From the IMG/VR virus record IMGVR_UViG_3300034946_000506: a stretch of DNA of 64,000 bases. One strand, given 5' to 3'. Made by a program: the position numbers and the translations under genes. This DNA is from an uncultured virus (IMG/VR IMGVR_UViG_3300034946_000506). Taxonomy: Duplodnaviria > Heunggongvirae > Uroviricota > Caudoviricetes. Shown here piece after piece: positions 2,834 through 56,103 of the stretch (positions are counted from its first letter, which is position 1; the number at the start of each line of letters is the position of its first letter). The notes beneath the pieces were generated by a model, which was not told where the DNA came from, did no database searches, and saw only the letters and a list, made by a program, of their open reading frames with translations.

Positions 2834-3586
2834 TTATTGGCTCATATTCATAATTCTATCAATTGGAATAGTATTCCAACTCGTTGTACTTTTCCAATTA
2901 CTTAAAGTATGTTGACCATCAAATGTAGCTTCCCAAAATACTAATTCATCATTTGTATCTGAGGCTGTAAACTGTGTTAAATCTTTTAAATCACCATCAA
3001 ATAATGTTCCGTTAATTTGGACTGCGCTCTGATCTACTTGTCTTTGTGGTTGCATACCTGGCATTATTTCTTCCATTGGACATAGCCAAAAGAACTCTAA
3101 TAAATCTGTATCATCAATTTCAGCATATCTATCTTCAGCTGAAATTTCCGTGTTATTACTTAAATCGTATGTTCCATATTGCATTTTTAATTTATTTGGA
3201 TATGTTTTGTCTTCTAAGTTCTGTGATTTTAAATTAGTATACATACCTAAAATATCTTCCATATATACATTTGATCCAAAATTCTCATGTAAGTATATAT
3301 CAGCATTCTGTAACGTTGCAGTAGTTACATCTTCTTCAATAATAGTTACTTTTACTTCATCTTTAAACAAAGTCTTAAGCCAAGTAATAACTCTTTTATT
3401 ATTTTCATATGCATATACATGTGTCGCACCGTACTTAACACATAGCCATGTTATAATCCCGGAACCAGCACCTAGTTCAACTACTGTTTTACCTGAAATA
3501 TTTGCTTTAATAAAGTCTAAATAAGCTTCAGTTCTTTCTTTATCGATAGCATAATCAAATACTCTATTTACTATTTGGTTTTTCAT
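2834..3586 (-). CDS. Class I SAM-dependent methyltransferase, PRMT-like
   Basis: DKERTEAY...GKTVVELGAGSGII...GATHVYAYE resembles the protein-arginine MTase N-terminal core. Confidence 0.75.
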   Translation of the reverse strand: MKNQIVNRVFDYAIDKERTEAYLDFIKANISGKTVVELGAGSGIITWLCVKYGATHVYAYENNKRVITWLKTLFKDEVKVTIIEEDVTTATLQNADIYLHENFGSNVYMEDILGMYTNLKSQNLEDKTYPNKLKMQYGTYDLSNNTEISAEDRYAEIDDTDLLEFFWLCPMEEIMPGMQPQRQVDQSAVQINGTLFDGDLKDLTQFTASDTNDELVFWEATFDGQHTLSNWKSTTSWNTIPIDRIMNMSQ

Positions 3587-28599: not shown

Positions 28600-29229
28600 T
28601 TAAAAATTTAAAGTTAAATTAATTGCAGCTGAATCCATAAATGCACCTGATCTTACTCCGTCCATAACCATTAATCCAATTGTTAGATTTTCTGTTACAG
28701 GCTTTGCAATCATTAACATTACATGAGACATTTCAGTTTGTCCAATTTTATTTTCTGCATATCCAACTGATACATTAGCAGCTTTGATAAATGTTAATGC
28801 TTGTAATACTTCTAAATAACTTAGATGCTCATCAACAGTATTACGGTAATATTTCAAACTTGTATTTTTCCAAGACGCTCCAATATAGACTTCTTCGAAA
28901 GGTTCATAATCGTCTCCATCGAAGTTATATTGAATAACACCCAAGTCTATACTCATATCGTCAGTCAAATCCGTGGTGTAACCAGCGTAAAAATCATATT
29001 CAACATTAGCAGTATCATCATAATCTACTTCACTTGCCCATGCTCCTGCATAAAAACCTGATTCATGATTATAGTCTACACCTGCTGCTACTGCAACATT
29101 TCCCGCATTTTGTGACATGCCTCTCCAAAAATAATCTGAAGCGACTGAAACATTATACGAAGTATCTGCTTGAGTAGTAAACGATGTTACTAATAAAAAA
29201 GAACATAAAAAAGCTTTTATGCAATTCAC
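28600..29229 (-). CDS. TorF/TIGR02001-like outer-membrane beta-barrel protein
   Basis: Signal peptide; SDYFWRGMSQ, GFYAGAWAS, EYDFYAGY; C-terminal Phe; probable GTG start. Confidence 0.8.
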   Translation of the reverse strand: MNCIKAFLCSFLLVTSFTTQADTSYNVSVASDYFWRGMSQNAGNVAVAAGVDYNHESGFYAGAWASEVDYDDTANVEYDFYAGYTTDLTDDMSIDLGVIQYNFDGDDYEPFEEVYIGASWKNTSLKYYRNTVDEHLSYLEVLQALTFIKAANVSVGYAENKIGQTEMSHVMLMIAKPVTENLTIGLMVMDGVRSGAFMDSAAINLTLNF

Positions 29230-29393
29230 TATGCTTCTCCCTTTACTAGAGTATATATACCCCATGCCAAACCTGCCCAAGCTAATAGTTTAGCAATACC
29301 ACCAAACAATACAACCGAGCCACATACCACGATAAGTGATACTCCATCTAAAGATGTTCTTTCACTAACTCTATCTTTAATCCAATCTAACAT
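29229..29393 (-). CDS. Small two-TM membrane protein
   Basis: Manual translation MLDWIKDRVSERTSLDGVSLIVVCGSVVLFGGIAKLLAWAGLAWGIYTLVKGEA; SD AGGAG. Confidence 0.7.
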   Translation of the reverse strand: MLDWIKDRVSERTSLDGVSLIVVCGSVVLFGGIAKLLAWAGLAWGIYTLVKGEA

Positions 29394-31062: not shown

Positions 31063-32114
31063 TAGTCTGTATACTCTATTTCAGGATCAAAATCAATTAA
31101 AGACTTATGACCAATTTGATATTGTTTAATTAAGAAATCTTTAAACTTTTGTGTTTTAAGAATTGGTTCCCAAAATGCATCTTCCTTAGTATCTTTTTCT
31201 CTTACTTTAGGTTCAACAATTTCTCCAGTTTCTTGATCAACTCTACAGTACCAACCATTACTAGGTTTAAACACAAAGCCGCCGGCGATAGCAATATCAA
31301 GAAGACCACTGTTACGTTCAACACCACCATCCCAAGAAACCGATACGGGAATCTTAGATTTTTCTTTAACCATTCGTGACTTTTCAACGTTGATAACAAA
31401 ATCATAACCTGTAACTTCCATACCTTTCTTATTCTGCCTGCGACCTAGAATCCAGATATTATCGGCTGAATAATAAATACCAGTACCACCTGAAACTACA
31501 GCTTTAGGGAATAATCCCATTTCTTGATATGTATGATTGACTGCCAGTAAAGACACATCTTTCATAGTTAAGTAAGGTGTTACCATACGGAATAAACCTT
31601 TAATAGCTTTAGCACGAGACATATCAGCAACTGATTTCTCATTTAATGCATCTTCCAATTCTTTCTTAGAAGCAAGGTTACCAATAGAATCAATTACAAT
31701 AATAACATGGTCTTTACGATCAATATTATCCAATTGACCAACTAAATCAAACTTAAGCTGTTCAACATCAGTAATTGGTGTATGAAGTACTCGAGTGGTA
31801 TCAATACCAAATGCTTCAAAGTATGATTGTGGCGAACCAAATTCAGAATCATAAAACAACATAACAGCATCTTTATGTTCTTTCATATAAGATGAAGCCA
31901 TCAATAAAGCAAATGATGTTTTAAAATGCTTTGAAGGGCCTGCTAATACAGTCAAACCAGAAGTTAATCCACCATCCATATCACCTGATAGAGCAACATT
32001 TATCATTGGTACTTCTGTTTTTACCATTGTCTTTTGGCCAAAGTATATACTATCTGATAATATATCAGTAGTTGATATCTTTGAGTTCTTTTTAAGTTTA
32101 TCCATTATACTCAT
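31062..32114 (-). CDS. uvsX: RecA-like recombinase UvsX
   Basis: [38 protein letters not shown]. Confidence 0.95.
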
Positions 32115-32383
32115 CGTACTTTTCTCCTGCCGAATTGTGTTTGCTGTGTAGAGCCTACTTCTCTTTTATGTCTAGCGATAGCCTCGGCCTTTTTACGCTT
32201 ACGCTTAGCAGTTGGTTTTTCATAATATTCTTTCTTACGAATATCTTGTAATATTCCAGCAGCTTCTACTGCTTTTTTAAATTTCCTTAAAGCTACATCA
32301 AACGGCATGTCCTGTTGTGGACGTTGGTTCTTCTTACCTTTTCGGAACTTTTGGGGTGGGGCTGTTAAATTAATACTTGGCAT
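32111..32383 (-). CDS. rpsU: Ribosomal protein bS21 homolog
   Basis: [11 protein letters not shown]...[23 protein letters not shown]. Confidence 0.9.
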
Positions 32384-32415: not shown

Positions 32416-32444
32416 ATTATAACATAAATTCAGTCAATTGTAAA
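32416..32444 (-). promoter_or_regulatory. Sigma70-type early promoter for bS21-uvsX
   Basis: TTTACA-N17-TATAAT. Confidence 0.78.
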
Positions 32445-33607
32445 CAGTTTTTTTCATATTCATAGGTTTTTTTCTTATTATCTTGAACCATGAAATTTGT
32501 ATCGACTTTATCTAATCTACCTTCTAGGTACTTTTTAACCATTCGAGCGGGATGCTCGGCAGTTGTCACTGGTACGTTTTGACACATATGATTAAGAGAT
32601 CTTTTAGGATTTAAAAGTTGATAATCACTAGGTAGTTTCATTAGTGATAATGATTCTCTTACGGTTAAAAATCTGTCTTCATCAGGATGAGTTAGATTAG
32701 TTGGCATATGTCCTACAAATGCTCCAATCTTATCTTTAGGAATTTCTATTCCCTTTCTCATAATATTGCCACCGGCTTTAAGCTTATGGTATTGTCTATC
32801 ACATTTATTTGCAACAGTGTCATATCCACGTTCTCGCATCCATCTAGCAACTTCTTTGTAATTTGTTCTTTCTTCAATATAATCTTGTAGACCTGTTGAT
32901 TTTTTAATCTTAGCTGAGAATTCTGAATGAGTAATCCCGCCTTCAAGTTCTTCTAGAATATACTTATAATATGGTTCATCTGATGGCTTACCTTCTTTAC
33001 ATAATATATTGCTCATAGGATCATCTTTATTATATTTAACTGCTCGAATATCATCGGCAATATTTGATGGTGCCACTTCAATATATTCAAATAATGGAAC
33101 TGAATCTCCTTTCCAAAAGAAGTAAAAAGTACGGTCTCTAACTTGACTTAATCCATGTAATAATGATTTTGTTTTAAATATACTGAATGTATATCCATTA
33201 GCCTCGGCAATTTTTCGCAGTCTACGTACTACTGGTTCACCCATTTTTGAAGCTAATCTTGGAGCATTCTCACCCCAAAAGACTTTTGGTTGAACTTCAG
33301 ATAAAACATACTCTGCTGATTTTACCATCCAATCATTTGCTGGGTTATTACTCGATGCCTGTGGACTTAATGAGCTTAGCCCAGCACATGGACATATAGT
33401 ATTAACAACGTCAACTTGACCATTGTGTTTATCGCCTTGAGATAAATTTAAATAAGGAACTTCATAATTATAATAATTTTGTAAGTGTTCTTCATTTGCT
33501 TGAAAACCATCGAATGTTAAAAAATATTCTGGTCTTGTTTTAAAAATATTTTCCATTGCGATTGTTTCTCCACCAATCAATGGAACGATACTTGCCCATG
33601 TAGTCAT
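32417..33607 (-). CDS. C5 cytosine methyltransferase-fold protein with atypical SAM-binding motifs
   Basis: Motif IV CPCAGLS, VI ENA, VIII QVRDR, IX RFLTVRE, X-like CQNVP; motif I reads VPLIGG rather than FxGxGG. Confidence 0.8.
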   Translation of the reverse strand: MTTWASIVPLIGGETIAMENIFKTRPEYFLTFDGFQANEEHLQNYYNYEVPYLNLSQGDKHNGQVDVVNTICPCAGLSSLSPQASSNNPANDWMVKSAEYVLSEVQPKVFWGENAPRLASKMGEPVVRRLRKIAEANGYTFSIFKTKSLLHGLSQVRDRTFYFFWKGDSVPLFEYIEVAPSNIADDIRAVKYNKDDPMSNILCKEGKPSDEPYYKYILEELEGGITHSEFSAKIKKSTGLQDYIEERTNYKEVARWMRERGYDTVANKCDRQYHKLKAGGNIMRKGIEIPKDKIGAFVGHMPTNLTHPDEDRFLTVRESLSLMKLPSDYQLLNPKRSLNHMCQNVPVTTAEHPARMVKKYLEGRLDKVDTNFMVQDNKKKTYEYEKNCLQLTEFML

Positions 33608-33608
33608 A

Positions 33609-34589
33609 TTAAAAAAATTCCTCGAGTGTATTAGTTTGTTCTATACCATTCCAATGCGGATAGTATTCTCTGGATAAATGTATTGATTGTGGTTTTTCCA
33701 TAAATTTAAAATCAAGTTCTTTATCTTTGTTCAACAGATAATTAGTCCATCTAATCAATCCATATTCTTTTTCAATATAGTCATTAAATCGATTACGTGC
33801 ATCTGTTCTTTCTTTCCATGAACCATAAAAGGGTTTACCTTTATAATATCCAGATTGCGGTATTTTCCTTGATTCATCTTCTATAGGAAGCAATTCATAA
33901 ATTTTAGCATTATACTTTTTAGCTTCCGTTATATATCTATCAGCCAATTCTTCTATACTTATTCCAAGTCTAATAGCATGGTGTCTTATATCAATATTAC
34001 CAAAATAACATTCAAGTTCATCGTAATCATGTTTAATAAAAGTATCAAAGCCTTCATTCAAGGCGCCATTAAGAGTTTTAAATGGAATGCTATTTACAGT
34101 CCAACCCGGACGATACATACAAATAGAATGACTATCTCCAATCACTAATTTACGCGTAGGGTTAATAACATCAACTCTAATTGCTGTGTTATACATTCTT
34201 TCAAGATTTACTAAATCTACATCATTCCATTCTGGTTGTACTTCTTTTTTGGCTGATGCTAATTTATCTTTTATCATAGTGTGATACTCTGGAAAATCAA
34301 TTCCAATGGAGTATACTTGGCCTTTAAACTTAGAAAAGTTTACTGTGTTCTTTACATACGGAAACCCATAAACACCACCAAACATATTAAGACCACCACT
34401 AAAATCGCTTCCATGATATACCCAAAGATTATCATATTCATTATGGTCTTCTATTTGCCCACCGTAATTAACATCGCAATTACCGTACTTTTGCTTTACT
34501 TCATCTCCATATATAACACCTTGAGCTCCTCTATGAGAAGCTGCTCGTTTAGCTACAGGAATAAATGGACAATTCAATATGTTTTTCAT
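33609..34589 (-). CDS. Hypothetical protein: BGT-like N-terminal domain plus SGNH/GDSL-like C-terminal domain
   Basis: IGDSH, FGNID, SIHLS blocks; the N-terminus recalls T4 beta-glucosyltransferase. Confidence 0.55.
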   Translation of the reverse strand: MKNILNCPFIPVAKRAASHRGAQGVIYGDEVKQKYGNCDVNYGGQIEDHNEYDNLWVYHGSDFSGGLNMFGGVYGFPYVKNTVNFSKFKGQVYSIGIDFPEYHTMIKDKLASAKKEVQPEWNDVDLVNLERMYNTAIRVDVINPTRKLVIGDSHSICMYRPGWTVNSIPFKTLNGALNEGFDTFIKHDYDELECYFGNIDIRHHAIRLGISIEELADRYITEAKKYNAKIYELLPIEDESRKIPQSGYYKGKPFYGSWKERTDARNRFNDYIEKEYGLIRWTNYLLNKDKELDFKFMEKPQSIHLSREYYPHWNGIEQTNTLEEFF

Positions 34590-35644
34590 AGAAAAAATTC
34601 TTCTATAGAGGATGGTTCTGTTTGTAAACTTTCTACGATTGAAGTGACATCAACCTTTGCTATTTGTCTTTTTTCAATTCTAGATGGATTTTGTTGCATA
34701 TCACAATATACTCCATACTGGCATAACGCAACTTCTGCAGTATAACATGTTAATTCGTTTTGAGCAAATGAATATACATCAATACCATCTACTTTAATAT
34801 TATGCCAATAATCATTAAAATGCATTTTACCAAATAACTTTTCTTGATTTTCTCTAACCCAAACAACCTGATTTCCAGGCGAACATTCTTTATTAGTTAG
34901 AGTTGGAAATAACATTTTAAGCGTGTGTTGACATCCTGGTCCAGGTAAAACAAATGGTTCATCATGAGTAAATGCCATAGATGGATTAGTCGATTGGTCA
35001 GTTGCTCCATGATATCCGTAGTAAGGACCAATACCTTCTTTAGAAAGTAATACACCAGCGCACTCTTTTAAAGTTTTAGCATTAAGTATCTTATCAACCG
35101 TTCCATCTTTAATCCAACCTGCTAGCCATGCAATCATATTAACAGAATGAGTATCAAATCCAAATTCCTGTTTAGCATATTTATTTGATGCACCCATTAA
35201 AGATGTATGTAACTCAGTCCTAGACCAAATAGAATATCCAAGAGATCTAGCTCTATCTAAATTAGATTTAATCTGACCTACATATTCTGGATCAATTAAT
35301 GCTCGTTCAAAATCTGTATACGCTTTCTTAGGGTCTAATTCTGCGTTAAGAACTCTATGGCAGTCTCTACCTCCATAAAAGTGAGTAATTACAAAGTTAA
35401 GTGCACGATTTACATCTGATATATTTTTGTTTGTTGATATATTTTCTGCTATATATCGTAATCGATCATCCATAGTTACATTGGGGCCAAAGTATTCTGT
35501 GTTCCATTGTATAGCTGGATCAGCACCATTAAAGAAGTCAGTCAATCCTGCACGGTAATCAAAGCCTTCAATAACACGCTTCCAAAAATAAGATATATCA
35601 TCTGCTACGCTTTGATCAACATATTTCCATAAATTAGTAGCCAA
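34586..35644 (-). CDS. aGPT-PPase1 / amino acid:DNA transferase-like DNA base hypermodification enzyme
   Basis: DPAI..EYF.PN...DDR, GIGPYYGY...D, PGPG...L..LF, EVALCQY..Y pattern. Confidence 0.7.
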   Translation of the reverse strand: MATNLWKYVDQSVADDISYFWKRVIEGFDYRAGLTDFFNGADPAIQWNTEYFGPNVTMDDRLRYIAENISTNKNISDVNRALNFVITHFYGGRDCHRVLNAELDPKKAYTDFERALIDPEYVGQIKSNLDRARSLGYSIWSRTELHTSLMGASNKYAKQEFGFDTHSVNMIAWLAGWIKDGTVDKILNAKTLKECAGVLLSKEGIGPYYGYHGATDQSTNPSMAFTHDEPFVLPGPGCQHTLKMLFPTLTNKECSPGNQVVWVRENQEKLFGKMHFNDYWHNIKVDGIDVYSFAQNELTCYTAEVALCQYGVYCDMQQNPSRIEKRQIAKVDVTSIVESLQTEPSSIEEFFL

Positions 35645-36026
35645 TTAAATCTTCACCTTCTCTTATCATATGTATAATTTGTAAATTGGGATGTGCTTCT
35701 CTAATAGCCTCTATTTGAATAGGATCATCTTCAAAGTGTAATCCTATTTCGTATCCTTTTTCTTTTAAATCCCAAATTGTTTGAGCCTTATGATATCCAG
35801 ACGATAAACGAGAATATCTAGAATCTTCTCGTGTTAATGGATTCATAAGCACTCTATTATATATGCCTCTAGAATGTAACATTTCGGTAGTTTCTTCTCT
35901 TTGCTCAAAGGAGCGGCCCGTGATGATAATATCTTCTTCACAAGGCCTAACTCCTGTAAAATCTTCACCAAAATAAATTACACCATCAATATCAAATGTG
36001 TTAATTTTAGGCATAGTCATTTTCAC
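35634..36026 (-). CDS. Capless HAD phosphatase (candidate inositol monophosphatase)
   Basis: FDIDGV, ITGR, K, HFEDD; overlaps the inositol-phosphate synthase stop. Confidence 0.8.
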   Translation of the reverse strand: MKMTMPKINTFDIDGVIYFGEDFTGVRPCEEDIIITGRSFEQREETTEMLHSRGIYNRVLMNPLTREDSRYSRLSSGYHKAQTIWDLKEKGYEIGLHFEDDPIQIEAIREAHPNLQIIHMIREGEDLIGY

Positions 36027-37287
36027 CTGATTGGAATGTATAAGTTAAGTCTTCAACTTTTGGCTTATTTTCTTTAAGTTGAGGGCGTGTAATATCAGTC
36101 AAAACTCTACGAGCTAAAGCATCGCATTCGAACTTAGCATCTGCAGTTTTAAGCTGTTGTGGTGGAGTCTTTTGAGACCATGCTGATGGACCACGAAGGT
36201 AACCAACAAGACCCATTTCAGAAGCAACTTTACAGAATCTAATAGCATCATAAACAATACCAGCACTATTTGGAGAATCTTGAACAGATAAACGAGCAGT
36301 AAGTTCATAACGTGCTCCTGCCCAACCCCAGAATACCATATCAATGTTAGCAATCTTGTTATCAGAACCAATATACTTATCGCCTGGTTTTTGGAAAACT
36401 GTAAGTGATGGCCCTGCATACATTGTAAGGCCAGCAATATCTTTACCACGTACAACTGCTTGACCATTCAATACGTTTTCTTTAGAGATATGCTTATTCT
36501 TTAAGCGATCTTTAGTAGCCATATTTAAGAAATCAGTATTAGCAGTACGACCTGTTCTACGCATATCGCCTTGAGTTGCTCCACAAGCTTTATTTTCTTG
36601 AATGTGCTGAGTTACTAATAAACCAGAATCCATAATAGACCCTTGAAGAACTTCAGATAAACGTGATGCTCCATAATCAGAACGCATATCAGAACCAACG
36701 ATTGTTACACCATTTTCAATAGCAAGTTCTTCTAATTCCATAGCATCTTTAGTAGAAATATAAGTTGGCATGCAATTAACAATATGCACTCCAGCTCGAA
36801 TAGCATTTTCAATATGCCATCTTGCTGCTTCTTCTGAACCTACTGGCATATAATTAAGTAAAACATCAACTTTACGATTTTTAAGAATCTCACGGTATTT
36901 AGCTGCTGAGATTGGAGTTGTTTCTGTATCTTCTAAAAACGAAATGTTCTCATCTAAATCATGCATGTGTGGTGCAATGCCATCAAGTGTTGGTGATCTA
37001 TACACAGTAGACTCGTTAGCAATACAGCTCATATCATGACCTGGAGGAAATACTTCCATGTTACAATTTGGTTTAGCATAGATTGCTTTATTTAATCGTT
37101 GACCAACTTTACGTGAATCAACATCAAAGCCAACTACAAAGTTAAAGTTTGGAGATGAATATCCACCAATGTCTTCAAACATTAGACCAATTGTATCTTC
37201 TGGATTTTCGTTATAGTATTGAACACCCTGAACGAGTGCTGATGAACAGTTGCCGACGCCGGCGATTGCGATATTAATTTTAGACAT
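36007..37287 (-). CDS. ino1: Myo-inositol-1-phosphate synthase (NAD-dependent)
   Basis: IAGVGNCSSALVQG, FDVDSRKVG, DVLLNYMPVGS, NTDFLNM, SK, DNK, DSPNSAG. Confidence 0.9.
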   Translation of the reverse strand: MSKINIAIAGVGNCSSALVQGVQYYNENPEDTIGLMFEDIGGYSSPNFNFVVGFDVDSRKVGQRLNKAIYAKPNCNMEVFPPGHDMSCIANESTVYRSPTLDGIAPHMHDLDENISFLEDTETTPISAAKYREILKNRKVDVLLNYMPVGSEEAARWHIENAIRAGVHIVNCMPTYISTKDAMELEELAIENGVTIVGSDMRSDYGASRLSEVLQGSIMDSGLLVTQHIQENKACGATQGDMRRTGRTANTDFLNMATKDRLKNKHISKENVLNGQAVVRGKDIAGLTMYAGPSLTVFQKPGDKYIGSDNKIANIDMVFWGWAGARYELTARLSVQDSPNSAGIVYDAIRFCKVASEMGLVGYLRGPSAWSQKTPPQQLKTADAKFECDALARRVLTDITRPQLKENKPKVEDLTYTFQSGENDYA

Positions 37288-38215: not shown

Positions 38216-38680
38216 TTAATCGATAAAGTCGTATACAATACCAGCTTCATCAAACATTTTCTTAGTTAGTGCAGTCGATTCAATCCATCTTTCTGGCATT
38301 GAATCATCGATCTCCTTTGTTACTACTCTTTTAACTCCAACTTGTATAATACCTTTAGCGCATTCAGAACAAACTGGAAGACCATGTATATATAGTGTTG
38401 AATTATCAAGTGATGTTCCATTGTATGTAGCATTATAAATGCAATTCATTTCAGCATGTACAACGTGTTGATATTTAGTAATTTTATTATTATACATTGA
38501 TACATCGTCAGATATTCCTCGAGGAAATCCGTTATATCCTTGAGCTAAAACTTGACCTTTAGATCCTACTGCGATTGCTCCAATTTTTCGTGATGGATCT
38601 TTAGACCACAATGCTATATGTTGAGCTAAAGCTATAAATCTCTTGTCCCATTTGTAACTTTTTGCTGATTCCCAACTCAT
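38216..38680 (-). CDS. cd: dCMP deaminase
   Basis: SKDPSRKIGA, GYNG, HAEMN, PVCSEC. Confidence 0.92.
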   Translation of the reverse strand: MSWESAKSYKWDKRFIALAQHIALWSKDPSRKIGAIAVGSKGQVLAQGYNGFPRGISDDVSMYNNKITKYQHVVHAEMNCIYNATYNGTSLDNSTLYIHGLPVCSECAKGIIQVGVKRVVTKEIDDSMPERWIESTALTKKMFDEAGIVYDFID

Positions 38681-38681
38681 A

Positions 38682-39341
38682 TTATTTCACCAAATCAAAG
38701 TGGCGTTCATAAACATGTAAGTTTTGAACTTGCCAGTGAATTTCACCTGTATCACATCTTAGTTCATCGGCCAATTCGCCAAGAACATGTTCTTGCCAAG
38801 CATAGTCATTACGATAGCCAAAGATTACATCATTAGAGCGCATTTGTACTACACAACTTAGTTTATCATCTCGAATATAATATGTGACTGCGTTAGTACA
38901 AATAAAATCATTCTTACCATTTTCATTATACTCCATCCAAATAGAAGGGCGTGTATATATCATTGAAGCTCTACGAGAATCTGGATTTCTTGTTAATTCC
39001 ATAACGCACTGATCAAACTGATTATAATACTTTTCACCAAAAATTAAATGACCATAGTTAGAATTGATTTCTCCATGATCATTGGCAGTCATTATCCATG
39101 CAGCCGGTGGCTCACGGTCATTACGATAAATGTCATTAATATTTGTAGATTGACTATGATACCAATCTAGTTCTACATCAATATATTCCTGATTAGGAGT
39201 TCCAAAAATAGCAGGTCGATCAGCAACAAATGATGCACCAATCAACTCAATAGTTTTACCACCATTTCTATCTTCGGTAAACATATCATTTAAAAGCCTA
39301 GCTTTAAATAAGCCTCGTATATTATCTATAGTTGTATTCAT
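38682..39341 (-). CDS. 42: dCMP hydroxymethylase (T4 gp42 ortholog)
   Basis: KTIELIGASFVAD, GEINSNYG, NPDSRR..MIYTRPS, DFICTN, MRSNDVIFGYRNDYAWQ (Asp at the cytosine-specificity position), LHVY.RHF, closely matching T4 gp42 as recalled. Confidence 0.92.
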   Translation of the reverse strand: MNTTIDNIRGLFKARLLNDMFTEDRNGGKTIELIGASFVADRPAIFGTPNQEYIDVELDWYHSQSTNINDIYRNDREPPAAWIMTANDHGEINSNYGHLIFGEKYYNQFDQCVMELTRNPDSRRASMIYTRPSIWMEYNENGKNDFICTNAVTYYIRDDKLSCVVQMRSNDVIFGYRNDYAWQEHVLGELADELRCDTGEIHWQVQNLHVYERHFDLVK

Positions 39342-42250: not shown

Positions 42251-44767
42251 TTAAAAAAATTCATCAAGTGTTGCTATATCTTTTGAGTTCCAGCCAACAG
42301 CTTGAAGTATTGGATCAATAACACCTAAGAATGTTTTTTCAAACTGAGTGTCATAATCAATATGGCGATGTAAACCAAACTCTTCAGGCAGATAATCAAG
42401 GAAGGATATTACATTTTCCTTCATATGATTAGGAGTTCGAAGGTAGATAAACTTAATCTTTTCGCCATTCTGAATCTTGTTATATTGCTTAGTAAGCGAT
42501 TTATCTACAAGTAGTTTGTTATACATGATACTGCCACGAGCATGAATCGGTGTACCTTTTTTGTATATAGTTTGATTATCCATATAGTTAGTAAGGTTAG
42601 TTATACCTCGTGGAAAGGCAATTTCATCAGGTGGTAGAGTTTTAAAGTACGTTCTAAATGCTTCGATATCATGCTGAACTTTGGATTCAGAGCCACTAAT
42701 AATCGTTTTAAACATTTGTTTAAGTGCTTCTCGACATGGAGCTGGTGTAGAAGACTTAATTGCTTCAATACCCATAATCTTAAGCTTAGGCTGTGCATAT
42801 CTAACACCTTCGTTATCAAGAACATTTAGAATATATCTTTTCTTAGCAGTCCATATTCCACGATCAGCGATTGCTTCACGACTCATAACCATACGATTTT
42901 CGATGCCACCCATAATATCAAATAGATTTGCATAGCTTTTTTCAAGTACAGCTTCAAGCTTTTCTTTACAAACTGTGTCAAGAAATTCCAATGGATTTTT
43001 AGGATTCACAGCTTTTACAAGATCATCTAGTACAACATAAACAGAATCAGTATCAATTGCTACTACATAATCTTTCTTAGTTTTAAGGATGCCATTAAGA
43101 TAATCATTCACAGCCTTCTCAGCCCATCGTATAGTGAGCTGTCCAGAAAGTGTAATACCTTCTGCTATACGCTGATCAAAGAATCTAAAGTACTTATTAC
43201 CTAAGGCACCATATAAACTGTTAAGAAGAATCTTAATAGACATTTGTTGATTTTCAGCAATACTGATATCTCTTTGAACACGATACAATTCAGTCTTATT
43301 AGTTTTATCTATCTTTTCAAGTTCTTTCTGTGCATTAATCATAGCGCGTTTAATAATAACACGTTCACTATACATTTCACTAATGATTTTTGGTAAGATA
43401 CCTTGATTATCAGTAGCAAAATACTGGCCTGATGCTGCAGCGCATTCATTATTTTCTAGCCTAGGTTTAACTTCACCACTTAGAAGACTATCAACATTGA
43501 CATTAGCAACTTTACCGTTAATAATAGTTTCAGGCGACATATTATACTGCATAATAAGTGATGGATACAGTGAGTTTAAATCAAAAGAAACGACCCATTC
43601 GTGCATACCAACTTGAGGATCTTTTACAAAGCCGCCTGGATATGGTGATTTAAACTTTTCTTCACCGAATGGAACAATGACATTATTTGCATGTAGATTG
43701 CGAAAGATAATAGAATCCCATATAGCAGTAGTACCCATAACATCGCCATAGTTAACACCACCACGATAAGCCATAGTAAGAGCTAGTGTAATAAGACCCA
43801 TCTTATCTTCAAAACGATCTACTAAGTCTACGTCTTTAATGTTGTAGTCAATAAACTTTTGATGATCATGTATGTAAAGAGTGTGGAGGTTACCATGTTC
43901 TTCATAAGAAAGTTTACGTTCTCCAAGTACTACGTTAGCAATATTGTCAAGCTTATATGATTCTTGTGGACCATACGAGTAACCAAATTTTCGAAATAGA
44001 TCAAGGTAATCCATTTGAGCGATACCTTGAATTTCATATGCGCATTGTTTACGCTGCATTGTATTGACGTCGCGGCGATCGATCAAACCCCAGGGAGATA
44101 ATCTACGCACAAACTCTTCACCATGGATTTTAATAATACGATTAACGAGGTATGGTATATCGAAGAACCTTGAATTCCACCCAGTGATTACATCCGGACA
44201 CTGCGATGGTAAAGACCAATGTGCAATGAATTTTAATAGAAGTTCTGATTCAGTCATACACTTTTCGTATACTACACGATTATCTTTCATGTATGTCTTT
44301 TCTACGTCATATTCTTTAAGACCCCAGACATAGAATGTGTTATCAATATTGTTTTTCATACAGATTGCGGTTACTTCATGAGCAGCTTCTTCAGGCTCAG
44401 GGAAACCAGCATCTGATTGAACTTCAATATCGATTGTTGTTACATTAATGATGTTACGATCAAACTTGATATTACCAGGGAATGCCTCATTGATATACGC
44501 TGGAATATGTTTGTTGTTACCAAATATATGTCTGCCAGCCGTATGCTGATTTGTCGCAAGCCAATCTTTAGCTTCACGCATATCTTCAAATTTAATAGGT
44601 GCAACTTTTGTTCCATCTAAAGCTTGAAATGGAGTTTGATTAGTAGTGTTGACATAAAATGTCGGTTTGTACTTAATTTTTGTTTGTATTTTTTTACCGT
44701 TAGAATAACCTCTATAAAGAAGATTATTGCCATATCTTGAAATATTTGTGTAGAATTTTAGATTCAT
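42251..44767 (-). CDS. 43: Family B DNA polymerase gp43
   Basis: DIEV exonuclease, FDLNSLYPS, KILLNSLYGALGN, DTDS, KKRY. Confidence 0.97.
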   Translation of the reverse strand: MNLKFYTNISRYGNNLLYRGYSNGKKIQTKIKYKPTFYVNTTNQTPFQALDGTKVAPIKFEDMREAKDWLATNQHTAGRHIFGNNKHIPAYINEAFPGNIKFDRNIINVTTIDIEVQSDAGFPEPEEAAHEVTAICMKNNIDNTFYVWGLKEYDVEKTYMKDNRVVYEKCMTESELLLKFIAHWSLPSQCPDVITGWNSRFFDIPYLVNRIIKIHGEEFVRRLSPWGLIDRRDVNTMQRKQCAYEIQGIAQMDYLDLFRKFGYSYGPQESYKLDNIANVVLGERKLSYEEHGNLHTLYIHDHQKFIDYNIKDVDLVDRFEDKMGLITLALTMAYRGGVNYGDVMGTTAIWDSIIFRNLHANNVIVPFGEEKFKSPYPGGFVKDPQVGMHEWVVSFDLNSLYPSLIMQYNMSPETIINGKVANVNVDSLLSGEVKPRLENNECAAASGQYFATDNQGILPKIISEMYSERVIIKRAMINAQKELEKIDKTNKTELYRVQRDISIAENQQMSIKILLNSLYGALGNKYFRFFDQRIAEGITLSGQLTIRWAEKAVNDYLNGILKTKKDYVVAIDTDSVYVVLDDLVKAVNPKNPLEFLDTVCKEKLEAVLEKSYANLFDIMGGIENRMVMSREAIADRGIWTAKKRYILNVLDNEGVRYAQPKLKIMGIEAIKSSTPAPCREALKQMFKTIISGSESKVQHDIEAFRTYFKTLPPDEIAFPRGITNLTNYMDNQTIYKKGTPIHARGSIMYNKLLVDKSLTKQYNKIQNGEKIKFIYLRTPNHMKENVISFLDYLPEEFGLHRHIDYDTQFEKTFLGVIDPILQAVGWNSKDIATLDEFF

Positions 44768-48037: not shown

Positions 48038-48045
48038 TATTTATA
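48038..48045 (-). promoter_or_regulatory. T4-type late promoter
   Basis: TATAAATA at the end of gene 45. Confidence 0.6.
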
Positions 48046-48706
48046 CACCGAAACTTGACGATTTCTCTAAAGCGATAAAATAATCCAATGGATTATCAGC
48101 ATTTCTCCAATTAGAAATGAGCCTAGAAGAAATCGATACCTTATAATTACCTTGTAGCATTTTTAGATTAGAAATACTAAACACGTAATTAAAGGTTTCA
48201 GTAGATGTTGTACCAAGATTAATATCAAATGTATTTGCTGTTGCATCTTTTTCATTAAATACAGAAGCTACAACCTCGTTACCAGTACTACTAAGGGATA
48301 ATTCTGAATGACCTAGTACTGCAGCTGCTTTTCGTATCTTATCTAGATTATCAGATGATAGATCTAAAACAACTTCACAATCAGGCATATTGATATCTTT
48401 ACTAGGTTGCGTAAGAATTTCAATTTCAGAATAAAAATATTTAATCTTTTGAGATCCATCAGTCATCACTAGCCATTTATCACTAAAGTCGAGTTCTGGA
48501 TTATCCATAAGACTAAATAAAGACAAAAATTCATTAAGATCATATACACCAAACTCAACAGGGAAGTCCTCTAGAATTGATACATTAGCCATAATGGTTT
48601 TTGCTTCAGAAATAGTCTTAAGTTCCTTTCCAGGCTTAAAGACTAGATTTGCGTTAATGCCTGAAAAGTTTTTCAGGATGTTAATAGTTTCACTTGATAT
48701 TTGCAT
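48041..48706 (-). CDS. 45: Sliding clamp gp45
   Basis: TINILKNFSGIN, FGVYDLNEFL, YFIALE. Confidence 0.95.
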   Translation of the reverse strand: MQISSETINILKNFSGINANLVFKPGKELKTISEAKTIMANVSILEDFPVEFGVYDLNEFLSLFSLMDNPELDFSDKWLVMTDGSQKIKYFYSEIEILTQPSKDINMPDCEVVLDLSSDNLDKIRKAAAVLGHSELSLSSTGNEVVASVFNEKDATANTFDINLGTTSTETFNYVFSISNLKMLQGNYKVSISSRLISNWRNADNPLDYFIALEKSSSFGV

Positions 48707-55527: not shown

Positions 55528-56103
55528 TTATACCATAAATAATTCTAGTTTTTCTTTTTCTTTTTCTATCTTAGCAAACTCTTTGATCTTTGCATCTTTG
55601 GTTCTGATCTGATCTATTCTGCTTCTTAATGTATCTACGTATGCCATAGTTTGTTGAGCACCTGAATCATCCATACCCATAGCAGCAAAATCTTCAATAC
55701 CCATTTTTTCAATGAATTTAAACTTAATATCTTGTTGCTTCTTCTCTTTGGTTATACGCCTAATAAAAGCAAAATAACAAATCTGAGTAAAATATGAAAA
55801 TGCATTAGGATTACCAGTACGTGTAGCAGTTTCTATCTTATAGTTATTAATTGCTCTTAAACAGTTTTCTACACCATCCATAACCATTTCTTCACGATAA
55901 GTATACCGAACAAAGTTCGGTCTGTGAGACAGTCCTTCAGATATTTTCATGAAACAAGTAGCAATATAATTAGTAACTTTAGGTACTTCTACTTCAGCTT
56001 CTCTAGCAGCATTTGCTGTTCGAACATACTCAACAACTGCAAGGGAAAACTCCTTGTTATTCACATAATGTGGTTTAGCTTTTGGTTTAATTTTTTCAGT
56101 CAT
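55528..56103 (-). CDS. 55: Late-transcription sigma factor gp55
   Basis: HYVNNKEF, RPNFVRYTYREEM, NAFSYFTQI..AFIRRI. Confidence 0.93.
   Translation of the reverse strand: MTEKIKPKAKPHYVNNKEFSLAVVEYVRTANAAREAEVEVPKVTNYIATCFMKISEGLSHRPNFVRYTYREEMVMDGVENCLRAINNYKIETATRTGNPNAFSYFTQICYFAFIRRITKEKKQQDIKFKFIEKMGIEDFAAMGMDDSGAQQTMAYVDTLRSRIDQIRTKDAKIKEFAKIEKEKEKLELFMV

Follow-up and report, generated by a model that had tools for sequence, protein, structure and literature searches.

What does a protein with the fold of a DNA (cytosine-5)-methyltransferase (C5-methyltransferase) do in a phage that is predicted to make its own 5-hydroxymethylcytosine (5hmC)? The question is raised by the open reading frame (ORF) at 32417..33607 (minus strand) of a 64,000-nucleotide stretch of DNA from an uncultured virus of the Caudoviricetes (IMG/VR record IMGVR_UViG_3300034946_000506), the whole of which is here called the window. 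The gene content of the window is that of a marine T4-like myophage, with genes for gp23, gp20, UvsX, UvsW, UvsY, a family B DNA polymerase, sliding clamp and clamp loader, as well as RegA, ribonucleotide reductase, ThyX, ribosomal protein S21, and CsgG and CsgF homologues. The C5-methyltransferase-like ORF, which we call MTl, encodes 396 amino acids from an ATG start one base past the stop codon of the upstream gene. A first-pass annotation had read the product as a C5-methyltransferase fold with intact catalytic motifs but degenerate S-adenosylmethionine (SAM)-binding motifs, which may be repurposed to activate 5hmC and to install a group such as inositol, and had proposed structure prediction as a check. 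The present analysis shows a family with a conserved catalytic set and a replaced but conserved cofactor set, whose phage members accompany gp42-type dCMP hydroxymethylases. We tentatively propose that MTl is a clamp-tethered, SAM-independent enzyme whose target is the C5 position of 5hmC in newly made phage DNA, a reading that we consider possible though still short of probable.

Fold, catalytic residues and cofactor motifs of MTl

The Pfam profile PF00145 matched MTl above its gathering score (53.6 bits, cut-off 22; E 3.1e-14), though only over profile positions 46-321 of 324 and with motifs I and II of MTl unrecognised, and the NCBIfam dcm profile (TIGR00675) remained below its cut-off (36.3 bits against 100.65). 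An AlphaFold2 model built on 123 relatives had a mean pLDDT of 96.3, and its top Foldseek matches were C5-methyltransferases throughout (best 2uz4_A, E 6.9e-13). VIA-align superposed the model on M.HaeIII (1dct_A; Z 25.3, rmsd 3.1 Å, 279 residues aligned) and on M.HhaI (1fjx_A; Z 25.1), with model residues 1-364 on chain residues 11-325. As modelled, MTl is a complete two-domain C5-methyltransferase fold, N-terminal cofactor half included, and the structure prediction agrees with the fold that the first-pass annotation had claimed. The ESM Atlas label was 'methyltransferase family, viruses' only. A word-indexed search returned 2005 matches, and 770 cluster representatives at 50% identity were obtained; the family is widespread in marine viromes. 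Its annotation is everywhere that of an ordinary cytosine methylase, and sources label relatives 'site-specific DNA-cytosine methylase'. A full-text literature search found no paper on the family, though work of the Aravind group may bear on prior description, and DNA methylase domains are unmentioned in the main text of the MetaGPA paper (PMC8670742).

Conservation was counted over 123 near-full-length representatives (365-440 amino acids; 27-56% identity to MTl) taken from the best 150 of the 770 matches. All motifs listed in the first-pass annotation were found, namely SIVPLIGG (residues 6-13), CPCAGLS (72-78), ENAP (113-116), QVRDR (155-159) and CQNVP (342-346), and its statement that the cytosine-activating motifs are retained holds across the family. 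On the minus strand, motif IV (CPCAGLS, 33374..33394) carries the catalytic Cys74, present in 122 of the 123 relatives; Glu113 of motif VI (ENAP, 33260..33271) and both Arg157 and Arg159 of motif VIII (QVRDR, 33131..33145) are invariant, and Gln155 occurs in 120. Motif IX, RFLTVRESLSLMKLPSDY (32621..32674, minus strand), was placed by profile alignments and family conservation. Residues beside the target base are smaller than usual, PCQ having become PCA (Ala75 in 103/123) and ENV having become ENA, with Ala115 for the canonical Val in 117/123.

The cofactor side is replaced. In the variant motif I (IVPLIGG, residues 7-13; 33569..33589, minus strand), which corresponds to the AdoMet loop, Val8 stands for the canonical Phe and Leu10 for Gly; where canonical enzymes have the Phe that stacks on adenine, 109 relatives have Ile or Val and none has Phe, while Pro9 (119), Leu10 (118), Gly12 (121) and Gly13 (118) are nearly constant. 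An hhalign alignment to Escherichia coli Dcm places V8-P-L-I-G-G13 on F-A-G-I-G-G (probability 50%, E 1.7e-4), in agreement with the 10-residue offset in the M.HhaI superposition. In the predicted strand beta-2 and the next loop (FLTFDGF, residues 29-35; 33503..33523, minus strand), Ser/Thr31 (120) and an aromatic residue at position 32 (117) replace the motif II Glu, the acid that canonically binds the ribose hydroxyls, and Phe35 (114) is near-invariant; no conserved acid follows this strand (residues 29-31) among the 123 relatives, position 33 being Asp or Glu in 34. The likely motif III Asp position holds Asp in 86, Glu in 11, Asn in 9 and Ser in 6 relatives, MTl itself having Ser56. In the variant motif X (CQNVP; 32570..32584, minus strand), profile alignment sets C342-Q343-N344-V345-P346 on G-N-A-V-P of M.HaeIII and on G-R350-M-V-P of CmoX, so that Gln343 occupies the position of M.HhaI Asn304 and CmoX Arg350; Gln343 (120), Asn344 (116) and Val345 (119) are again highly conserved, as are Asn38 (115), Asp/Glu39 (119) and, to a lesser degree, His41 (87). 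Because these variants are near-invariant in the 123 relatives, they are diverged motifs under selection and not decayed ones. Thus, the claim of the first-pass annotation that the canonical SAM contacts are replaced by VPLIGG and CQNVP stands, but its word 'degenerate' does not.

Compared with the DNA (cytosine-5)-methyltransferases (EC 2.1.1.37), MTl has motifs IV, VI and VIII and lacks the canonical forms of I, II and X. It shares with M.HhaI, M.HaeIII and DNMT1 (all PF00145) the two-domain fold, PC, EN-, Q-R-R and the motif IX residues, but differs from them in having VPLIGG for FxGxGG, no beta-2 Glu, QNVP for GN(A/S)V, PCA and ENA, and in occurring solely in phages that have a dCMP hydroxymethylase and in eukaryote-like transcripts. 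A further comparison is with SpCmoX (PDB 8YF3; PMC12783734), likewise a phage C5-methyltransferase homologue with a changed motif X residue (Z 23.0 to the MTl model). According to that report, Arg350 of CmoX replaces HhaI Asn304, holds the carboxymethyl group and selects the group transferred, and Phe25, Glu47, Phe48 and Asp69 hold the adenosine. CmoX keeps these adenosine contacts, has SPPC and Arg350, and travels with CmoA, the synthase of carboxy-S-adenosylmethionine (Cx-SAM), whereas MTl has CPCA and Gln343; carboxymethyl transfer of the CmoX type by MTl was rejected, SPPC and the Arg being absent. Aligned in this way, the MTl family differs from canonical enzymes at the residue that selects the group, as CmoX does, but unlike CmoX has also given up the contacts to the adenosine, and canonical SAM binding would have been lost with them.

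MTl could nevertheless be an unusual but genuine cytosine-5 methyltransferase that uses SAM or a SAM analogue through its variant motifs and acts on residual or specific cytosines. The passed Pfam score, the naming of the relatives and the superposition of the whole fold on M.HhaI, N-terminal half included, are consistent with such an enzyme, as are the kept GG of motif I and the motif III Asp of most relatives, and CmoX (PMC12783734) provides a precedent in which a motif X change retunes cofactor use without abolishing it. However, none of the adenosine contacts common to CmoX and M.HhaI is retained (the Phe and the beta-2 Glu are replaced, as is the Asp of MTl itself), and MTl lies far under the dcm cut-off. 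Furthermore, NCBIfam named no carboxy-SAM synthase among 10 window proteins, including the product of 2834-3586, the only other methyltransferase-fold ORF found in the window; CmoA was also absent from the Pfam names of 77 ORFs inspected by eye, in searches that did not use a CmoA model and in a window that is part of a genome. Together with its distribution, described below, we consider a true methylase unlikely; if MTl is one, its motif set would widen the range of SAM sites known for this fold.

Relation of MTl to dCMP hydroxymethylases

The window encodes a gp42-type thymidylate synthase homologue at 38682..39341 (minus strand; E 2.2e-68 to T4 gp42). At the positions of E. coli ThyA L143, the catalytic Cys, D169 and N177 it has Asp, Cys, Asp and Asp, a signature written here as D-C-D-D, with R-C-D-D and C-C-D-D for homologues having Arg or Cys at the first position. 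As described in PMC13326640, N177D is diagnostic of dCMP as substrate, L143D/E of hydroxymethylation, and D169N of 5-hydroxy-dCMP synthases. Because N177D and L143D are present and Asp169 is kept, the enzyme is predicted to make 5-hydroxymethyl-dCMP; a 5-hydroxy-dCMP synthase was rejected, as the D169N marker is absent. A dCMP deaminase (38216..38680, minus strand), a MazG-like pyrophosphatase and ThyX are likewise encoded in the window. The 5hmC context assumed in the first-pass annotation is supported by the diagnostic residues of this enzyme, and the MTl family tracks the enzyme type over deep divergence.

In three divergent sets of viral loci chosen by MTl, the synthase homologue beside the MTl member was D-C-D-D in 105 of 106 cases, the remaining one being an incomplete sequence. 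Among loci that extended 8 kb or more to either side, a D-C-D-D enzyme was found in 6/6, 16/16 and 10/23 loci of the respective sets. The 13 misses belong to one lineage, in which three fragment records (15-26% complete) gave no match and a large record (45% complete) carried a canonical ThyA and a D-C-D-D homologue 56 kb away. A search of 185,579 species genomes gave only 16 MTl matches, each on a metagenome-bin contig; of 15 such contigs with a full MTl ORF, 11 had D-C-D-D nearby, one had an unalignable homologue and three had short flanks. The cultured Pseudoalteromonas phage vB_Psh_XG4 has D-C-D-D together with glycosyltransferases.

Loci were also chosen by UvsX, and hence without bias for MTl. 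Among 80 such loci (67-100% identity), 58 had at least 2 kb upstream of UvsX, and MTl was present in 17 and absent from 41 of these. The 17 loci with MTl comprised 12 with D-C-D-D, none with R-C-D-D and 5 with no homologue in the available flank, and the corresponding numbers for the 41 loci without MTl were 3, 29 and 9 (Fisher p = 2e-8, which overstates the evidence because the loci are related). The presence of MTl implies a gp42-type enzyme, and the reverse is untrue. For an ordinary methylase it is hard to see why the gene should be limited to phages of the gp42 type (12/15 D-C-D-D against 0/29 R-C-D-D loci), in which C5 is already occupied. Loci chosen by MTl had suggested an invariable core gene next to a changing cassette, a view that was rejected, only 17 of the 58 loci carrying MTl.

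Other synthase homologues were also noted. The 29 R-C-D-D loci, from close relatives (L275:6703-9743, with L280, L298, L307, L318, L327 and L329 as further examples), have another module in the slot beside UvsX, consisting of the synthase homologue (Arg at the L143 position, Asp at N177), a GATase_7/Asn_synthase protein of 430-466 amino acids, dCMP deaminase and AhpC; this module, with MTl in 0/29, points to another nucleotide-level cytosine modification. The annotated ThyA of cyanophage S-TIM5 (L001:4757-5593) is C-C-D-D, with Cys at L143 and Asp at N177; it is predicted to act on dCMP and not on dUMP, and the S-TIM5 genome may contain C5-modified cytosine. In Bacillus phage G, the second synthase homologue is D-C-D-D and the MTl homologue gp301 is an outlier; here (L088:388-2514, L084) the 348-amino-acid gp42-type homologue and a dCMP deaminase adjoin two alpha-glucosyltransferase genes, a sugar-nucleotidyltransferase and gp301, an arrangement that suggests glucosylated 5hmC DNA in this jumbo phage.

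Outside phages, longer, eukaryote-like MTl relatives with C2H2 or CXXC fingers occur on short contigs of 2-5 kb (P0216, P0178, P0263, P0153, P0176 and P0186). IPL(I/V)GG and QNVP are retained where these regions are present, except in P0216; P0263 lacks the N-terminal end. P0216, which represents a cluster of 47, has the order C2H2, MTl and TET2-like dioxygenase (residues 636-820; 5d9y_A, E 6.8e-12), and its motifs differ slightly (YPNAGGG, QGVP). The MTl family thus meets a 5hmC-making enzyme in two unrelated ways, gp42-type in phages and a fused TET in the eukaryote-like branch, and this branch suggests that the same activity may matter outside phages. We consider it rather doubtful, though worth stating, that the family is a dedicated SAM-independent DNA enzyme using the Cys-C6 adduct on 5hmC and recruited twice beside a 5hmC-making enzyme. 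TET and CXXC fusions are also classic partners of true methylases (PMC8256090). However, a jackhmmer search of the 416 fetched loci with the TET segment of P0216 gave no TET-like ORF, so that an adjacent TET, as a phage methylase might have, was never seen there. Tet_JBP was likewise absent from the window ORFs and from three cultured phage genomes, the latter a weak result, as control genomes also gave none. The phage clusters of C5-methyltransferase, TET and glycosyltransferase genes (PMC8256090; 10.1101/2023.12.21.572611) resemble the MTl loci in that a homologue of C5-methyltransferases adjoins DNA glycosyltransferases, TAGT among them, and in using 5hmC as a handle, but in those clusters a methylase and a TET produce the 5hmC on the DNA, whereas in the MTl phages it would be made as a nucleotide by the gp42-type enzyme.

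Clamp-type tails and a possible reaction on 5hmC

The C-terminal tail of MTl, LQLTEFML (32420..32443, minus strand), resembles the end of the family B DNA polymerase of the window, ATLDEFF (42251..44767, minus strand), and the presumed docking partner of such tails is the gp45-type sliding clamp (48041..48706, minus strand). The polymerase, gp55 and gp33 of T4 and RB69 bind gp45 through C-terminal peptides of this kind. Screening the minus-strand window ORFs of at least 60 amino acids with a pattern of our own picked six proteins, namely the polymerase, a gp55-like late sigma factor (55528-56103; tail KLELFMV; phrog_234, E 2.7e-50), MTl, its SGNH-like and HMUDK-helical neighbours described below, and the product of 28600-29280, whose ending NLTLNF we take for a chance match. 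In T4-like loci, five of seven DNA glycosyltransferases checked end in LEEFF(A) (TAGT 2/2, AGT 3/4), and the AGT and the beta-GT-like protein of one locus (L078) and the nucleotide-sugar enzymes are without this tail. Over the 123 relatives, 25 tails are T4-like, 33 end in (L/I/M)(F/Y) and 65 are of other kinds; because only 25 are T4-like, the tail claim is limited to the T4-like phage group. Judged from its tail, MTl is probably tethered to the phage sliding clamp, and a tail of the type L-x-E/D-F-F/M may help to pick out DNA-acting enzymes in this group.

We propose the following scenario. Riding on the sliding clamp, MTl would work on freshly replicated DNA containing 5hmC, its most likely substrate. 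The thiol of Cys74 would add to C6 while Glu113 protonates N3 and Arg157 and Arg159 hold the base, as in a methylase, though MTl would no longer bind SAM in the canonical manner. In the Cys-C6 adduct the 5-CH2OH group would be activated by loss of water to an exocyclic methylene, and a different small group could then take its place or be attached to it; such a group would be held at the former site of the methionine end of SAM, which Gln343 and Asn344 would line. The T4 alpha- and beta-glucosyltransferases are similar in acting on 5hmC DNA after replication and in lying in the slot between uvsX and gene 42, the hydroxymethylase gene; they differ in fold and chemistry, transferring a sugar to the hydroxyl without a covalent base adduct.

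Several steps of this scenario have counterparts in the chemistry of ordinary C5-methyltransferases, which, in the hands of the Klimasauskas laboratory, have reportedly coupled thiols to 5hmC. We know of no natural enzyme dedicated to such SAM-free reactions on 5hmC. PMC11347137 reports that the ordinary C5-methyltransferase M.MpeI forms covalent complexes with 5hmC DNA and cites SAM-free dehydroxymethylation of 5hmC, in line with the removal of formaldehyde from 5hmC named in the first-pass annotation. These reactions share with the proposed route the Cys-C6 adduct and the loss or exchange of the 5-hydroxymethyl group, but have been seen in vitro as by-activities of normal methylases. If MTl acts without SAM on 5hmC DNA, no earlier natural enzyme would have been founded on this side-reaction chemistry of methylases, and the hypermodification of cytosine in phages would gain a further step; activation of 5hmC would moreover be a type of reaction new to the C5-methyltransferase fold and would open another route by which cytosine is hypermodified. 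MTl could then serve as a candidate reagent for the labelling of 5hmC, a use already made of other phage enzymes from the 5hmC pathway.

The same clamp-type tail, which would put MTl just behind the polymerase, also suits a patch enzyme that places a one-carbon unit from a donor other than SAM, for example 5,10-methylenetetrahydrofolate or formaldehyde, on stray cytosines in nascent DNA, giving 5hmC that cassette enzymes then decorate. The link of MTl to phages of the 5hmC type and its absence from R-C-D-D phages would fit this function, its optional nature is as expected of a back-up, and the CXXC fusion fits an unmodified cytosine as substrate. Asn38, Asp/Glu39, His41, Phe35 and the aromatic residue 32 could, as we see it, bind a pterin, and C5-methyltransferases without SAM add aldehydes to cytosine. 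However, we know of no folate-using enzyme of the methyltransferase fold, the activity would duplicate the nucleotide-level pathway of hydroxymethylase, deaminase and MazG-like pyrophosphatase in the window, and the smaller Ala75 and Ala115 beside the base argue for room at C5 and not for exclusion of 5hmC. We therefore regard a patch enzyme as improbable.

Very unlikely, in our estimation, is an MTl that transfers no alkyl group at all, either a base-flipping binder or covalent trap of 5hmC or cytosine that marks or shields sites, or a SAM-free deaminase or remover of the C5 group. The remodelled cofactor site and the dispensable gene are compatible with both forms, and C5-methyltransferases deprived of SAM deaminate cytosine. 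Removal of formaldehyde from 5hmC under such conditions is cited in PMC11347137. However, turnover chemistry is indicated by the invariance of Cys, Glu and both Arg in all 123 relatives taken together, 5hmC deaminated opposite G would give rise to mutations, and removal of the hydroxymethyl group would undo the pathway of the phage itself. Deamination of 5hmC by MTl to feed the HMUDK-helical neighbour was dropped as mutagenic.

A number of points weigh against the proposed SAM-independent action on 5hmC. Both motif I glycines are retained, as is the motif III Asp in 70% of the family; that SAM binding is lost is a prediction from sequence, and the roles given to the positions of HhaI Phe18, Gly20, Gln82 and Val121 are assumed by us. 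The counted loci are related, and the association of MTl with the hydroxymethylase is in part inherited. MTl is absent from 3 of 15 D-C-D-D loci having a galactofuranose-type cassette that carries MTl elsewhere; together with 5 of 45 inositol modules without MTl, these loci show that its product is unnecessary to the cassettes. The S-TIM5 synthase homologue may make 5-methyl-dCMP, which offers no leaving group. The CXXC (E 6.6e-7) and C2H2 fingers of the eukaryote-like members are what a true methylase directed to unmethylated DNA might carry, and in the TET fusion the methylase may just as well supply the TET with its substrate, as in the phage pairs of C5-methyltransferase and TET described in PMC8256090.

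Inositol genes, sugar cassettes and other neighbours

The link to inositol drawn in the first-pass annotation can be judged from the four genes beside MTl, all on the minus strand. The 326-amino-acid neighbour (33609..34589) has a GDSHS motif, is SGNH-hydrolase-like by eye, matches phrog_17781 and phrog_13881 and ends in NTLEEFF. The next, of 352 amino acids (34586..35644), has a 5-hydroxymethyldeoxyuridine DNA kinase (HMUDK) helical domain (PF18723, E 3.5e-15) and ends in SSIEEFFL; no P-loop was seen in it by eye. The 130-amino-acid protein at 35634..36026 matches phrog_415, a polynucleotide kinase family, over profile positions 80-165; from this match it is probably the phosphatase part of that family, freeing inositol. 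The fourth is an inositol-3-phosphate-synthase-like protein of 426 amino acids (36007..37287).

In relatives, the genes between deaminase and MTl encode AGT, T4-beta-GT-like or TAGT glycosyltransferases, UDP-galactopyranose mutase and epimerases, or further UDP-glucose dehydrogenase, radical SAM enzymes or an aminotransferase. Of the UvsX-chosen loci with at least 3.5 kb upstream, 4 carried MTl and the inositol module, 10 MTl without the module, and 27 neither. When loci were chosen by inositol-phosphate synthase (at least 4.8 kb downstream; n=45), all retained the 130-amino-acid, HMUDK-helical and SGNH-like genes; MTl was present in 40 and absent from 5 in spite of a complete four-gene module, and in L368 UvsX directly follows the SGNH-like gene with no MTl between. 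Similarly, the galactofuranose-type cassette occurs with MTl in L014 and L034 and without it in L310 and L320. MTl is an optional module separate from the inositol genes and the cassettes. A general role as installer of inositol was rejected, as 10 of 14 UvsX-chosen carriers have no inositol module and 5 of 45 modules have no MTl; the suggestion in the first-pass annotation fails on these counts and on the company that MTl keeps with AGT, TAGT, UDP-galactopyranose-mutase and radical-SAM cassettes.

Two further features of the window were noted. Ribosomal protein S21 (32111-32383; PF01165, E 2.5e-17) lies between MTl and UvsX, as it does in many but not all relatives. Components of curli secretion are also encoded by the phage, with homologues of CsgG (E 9.4e-49) and CsgF at 114-1570.

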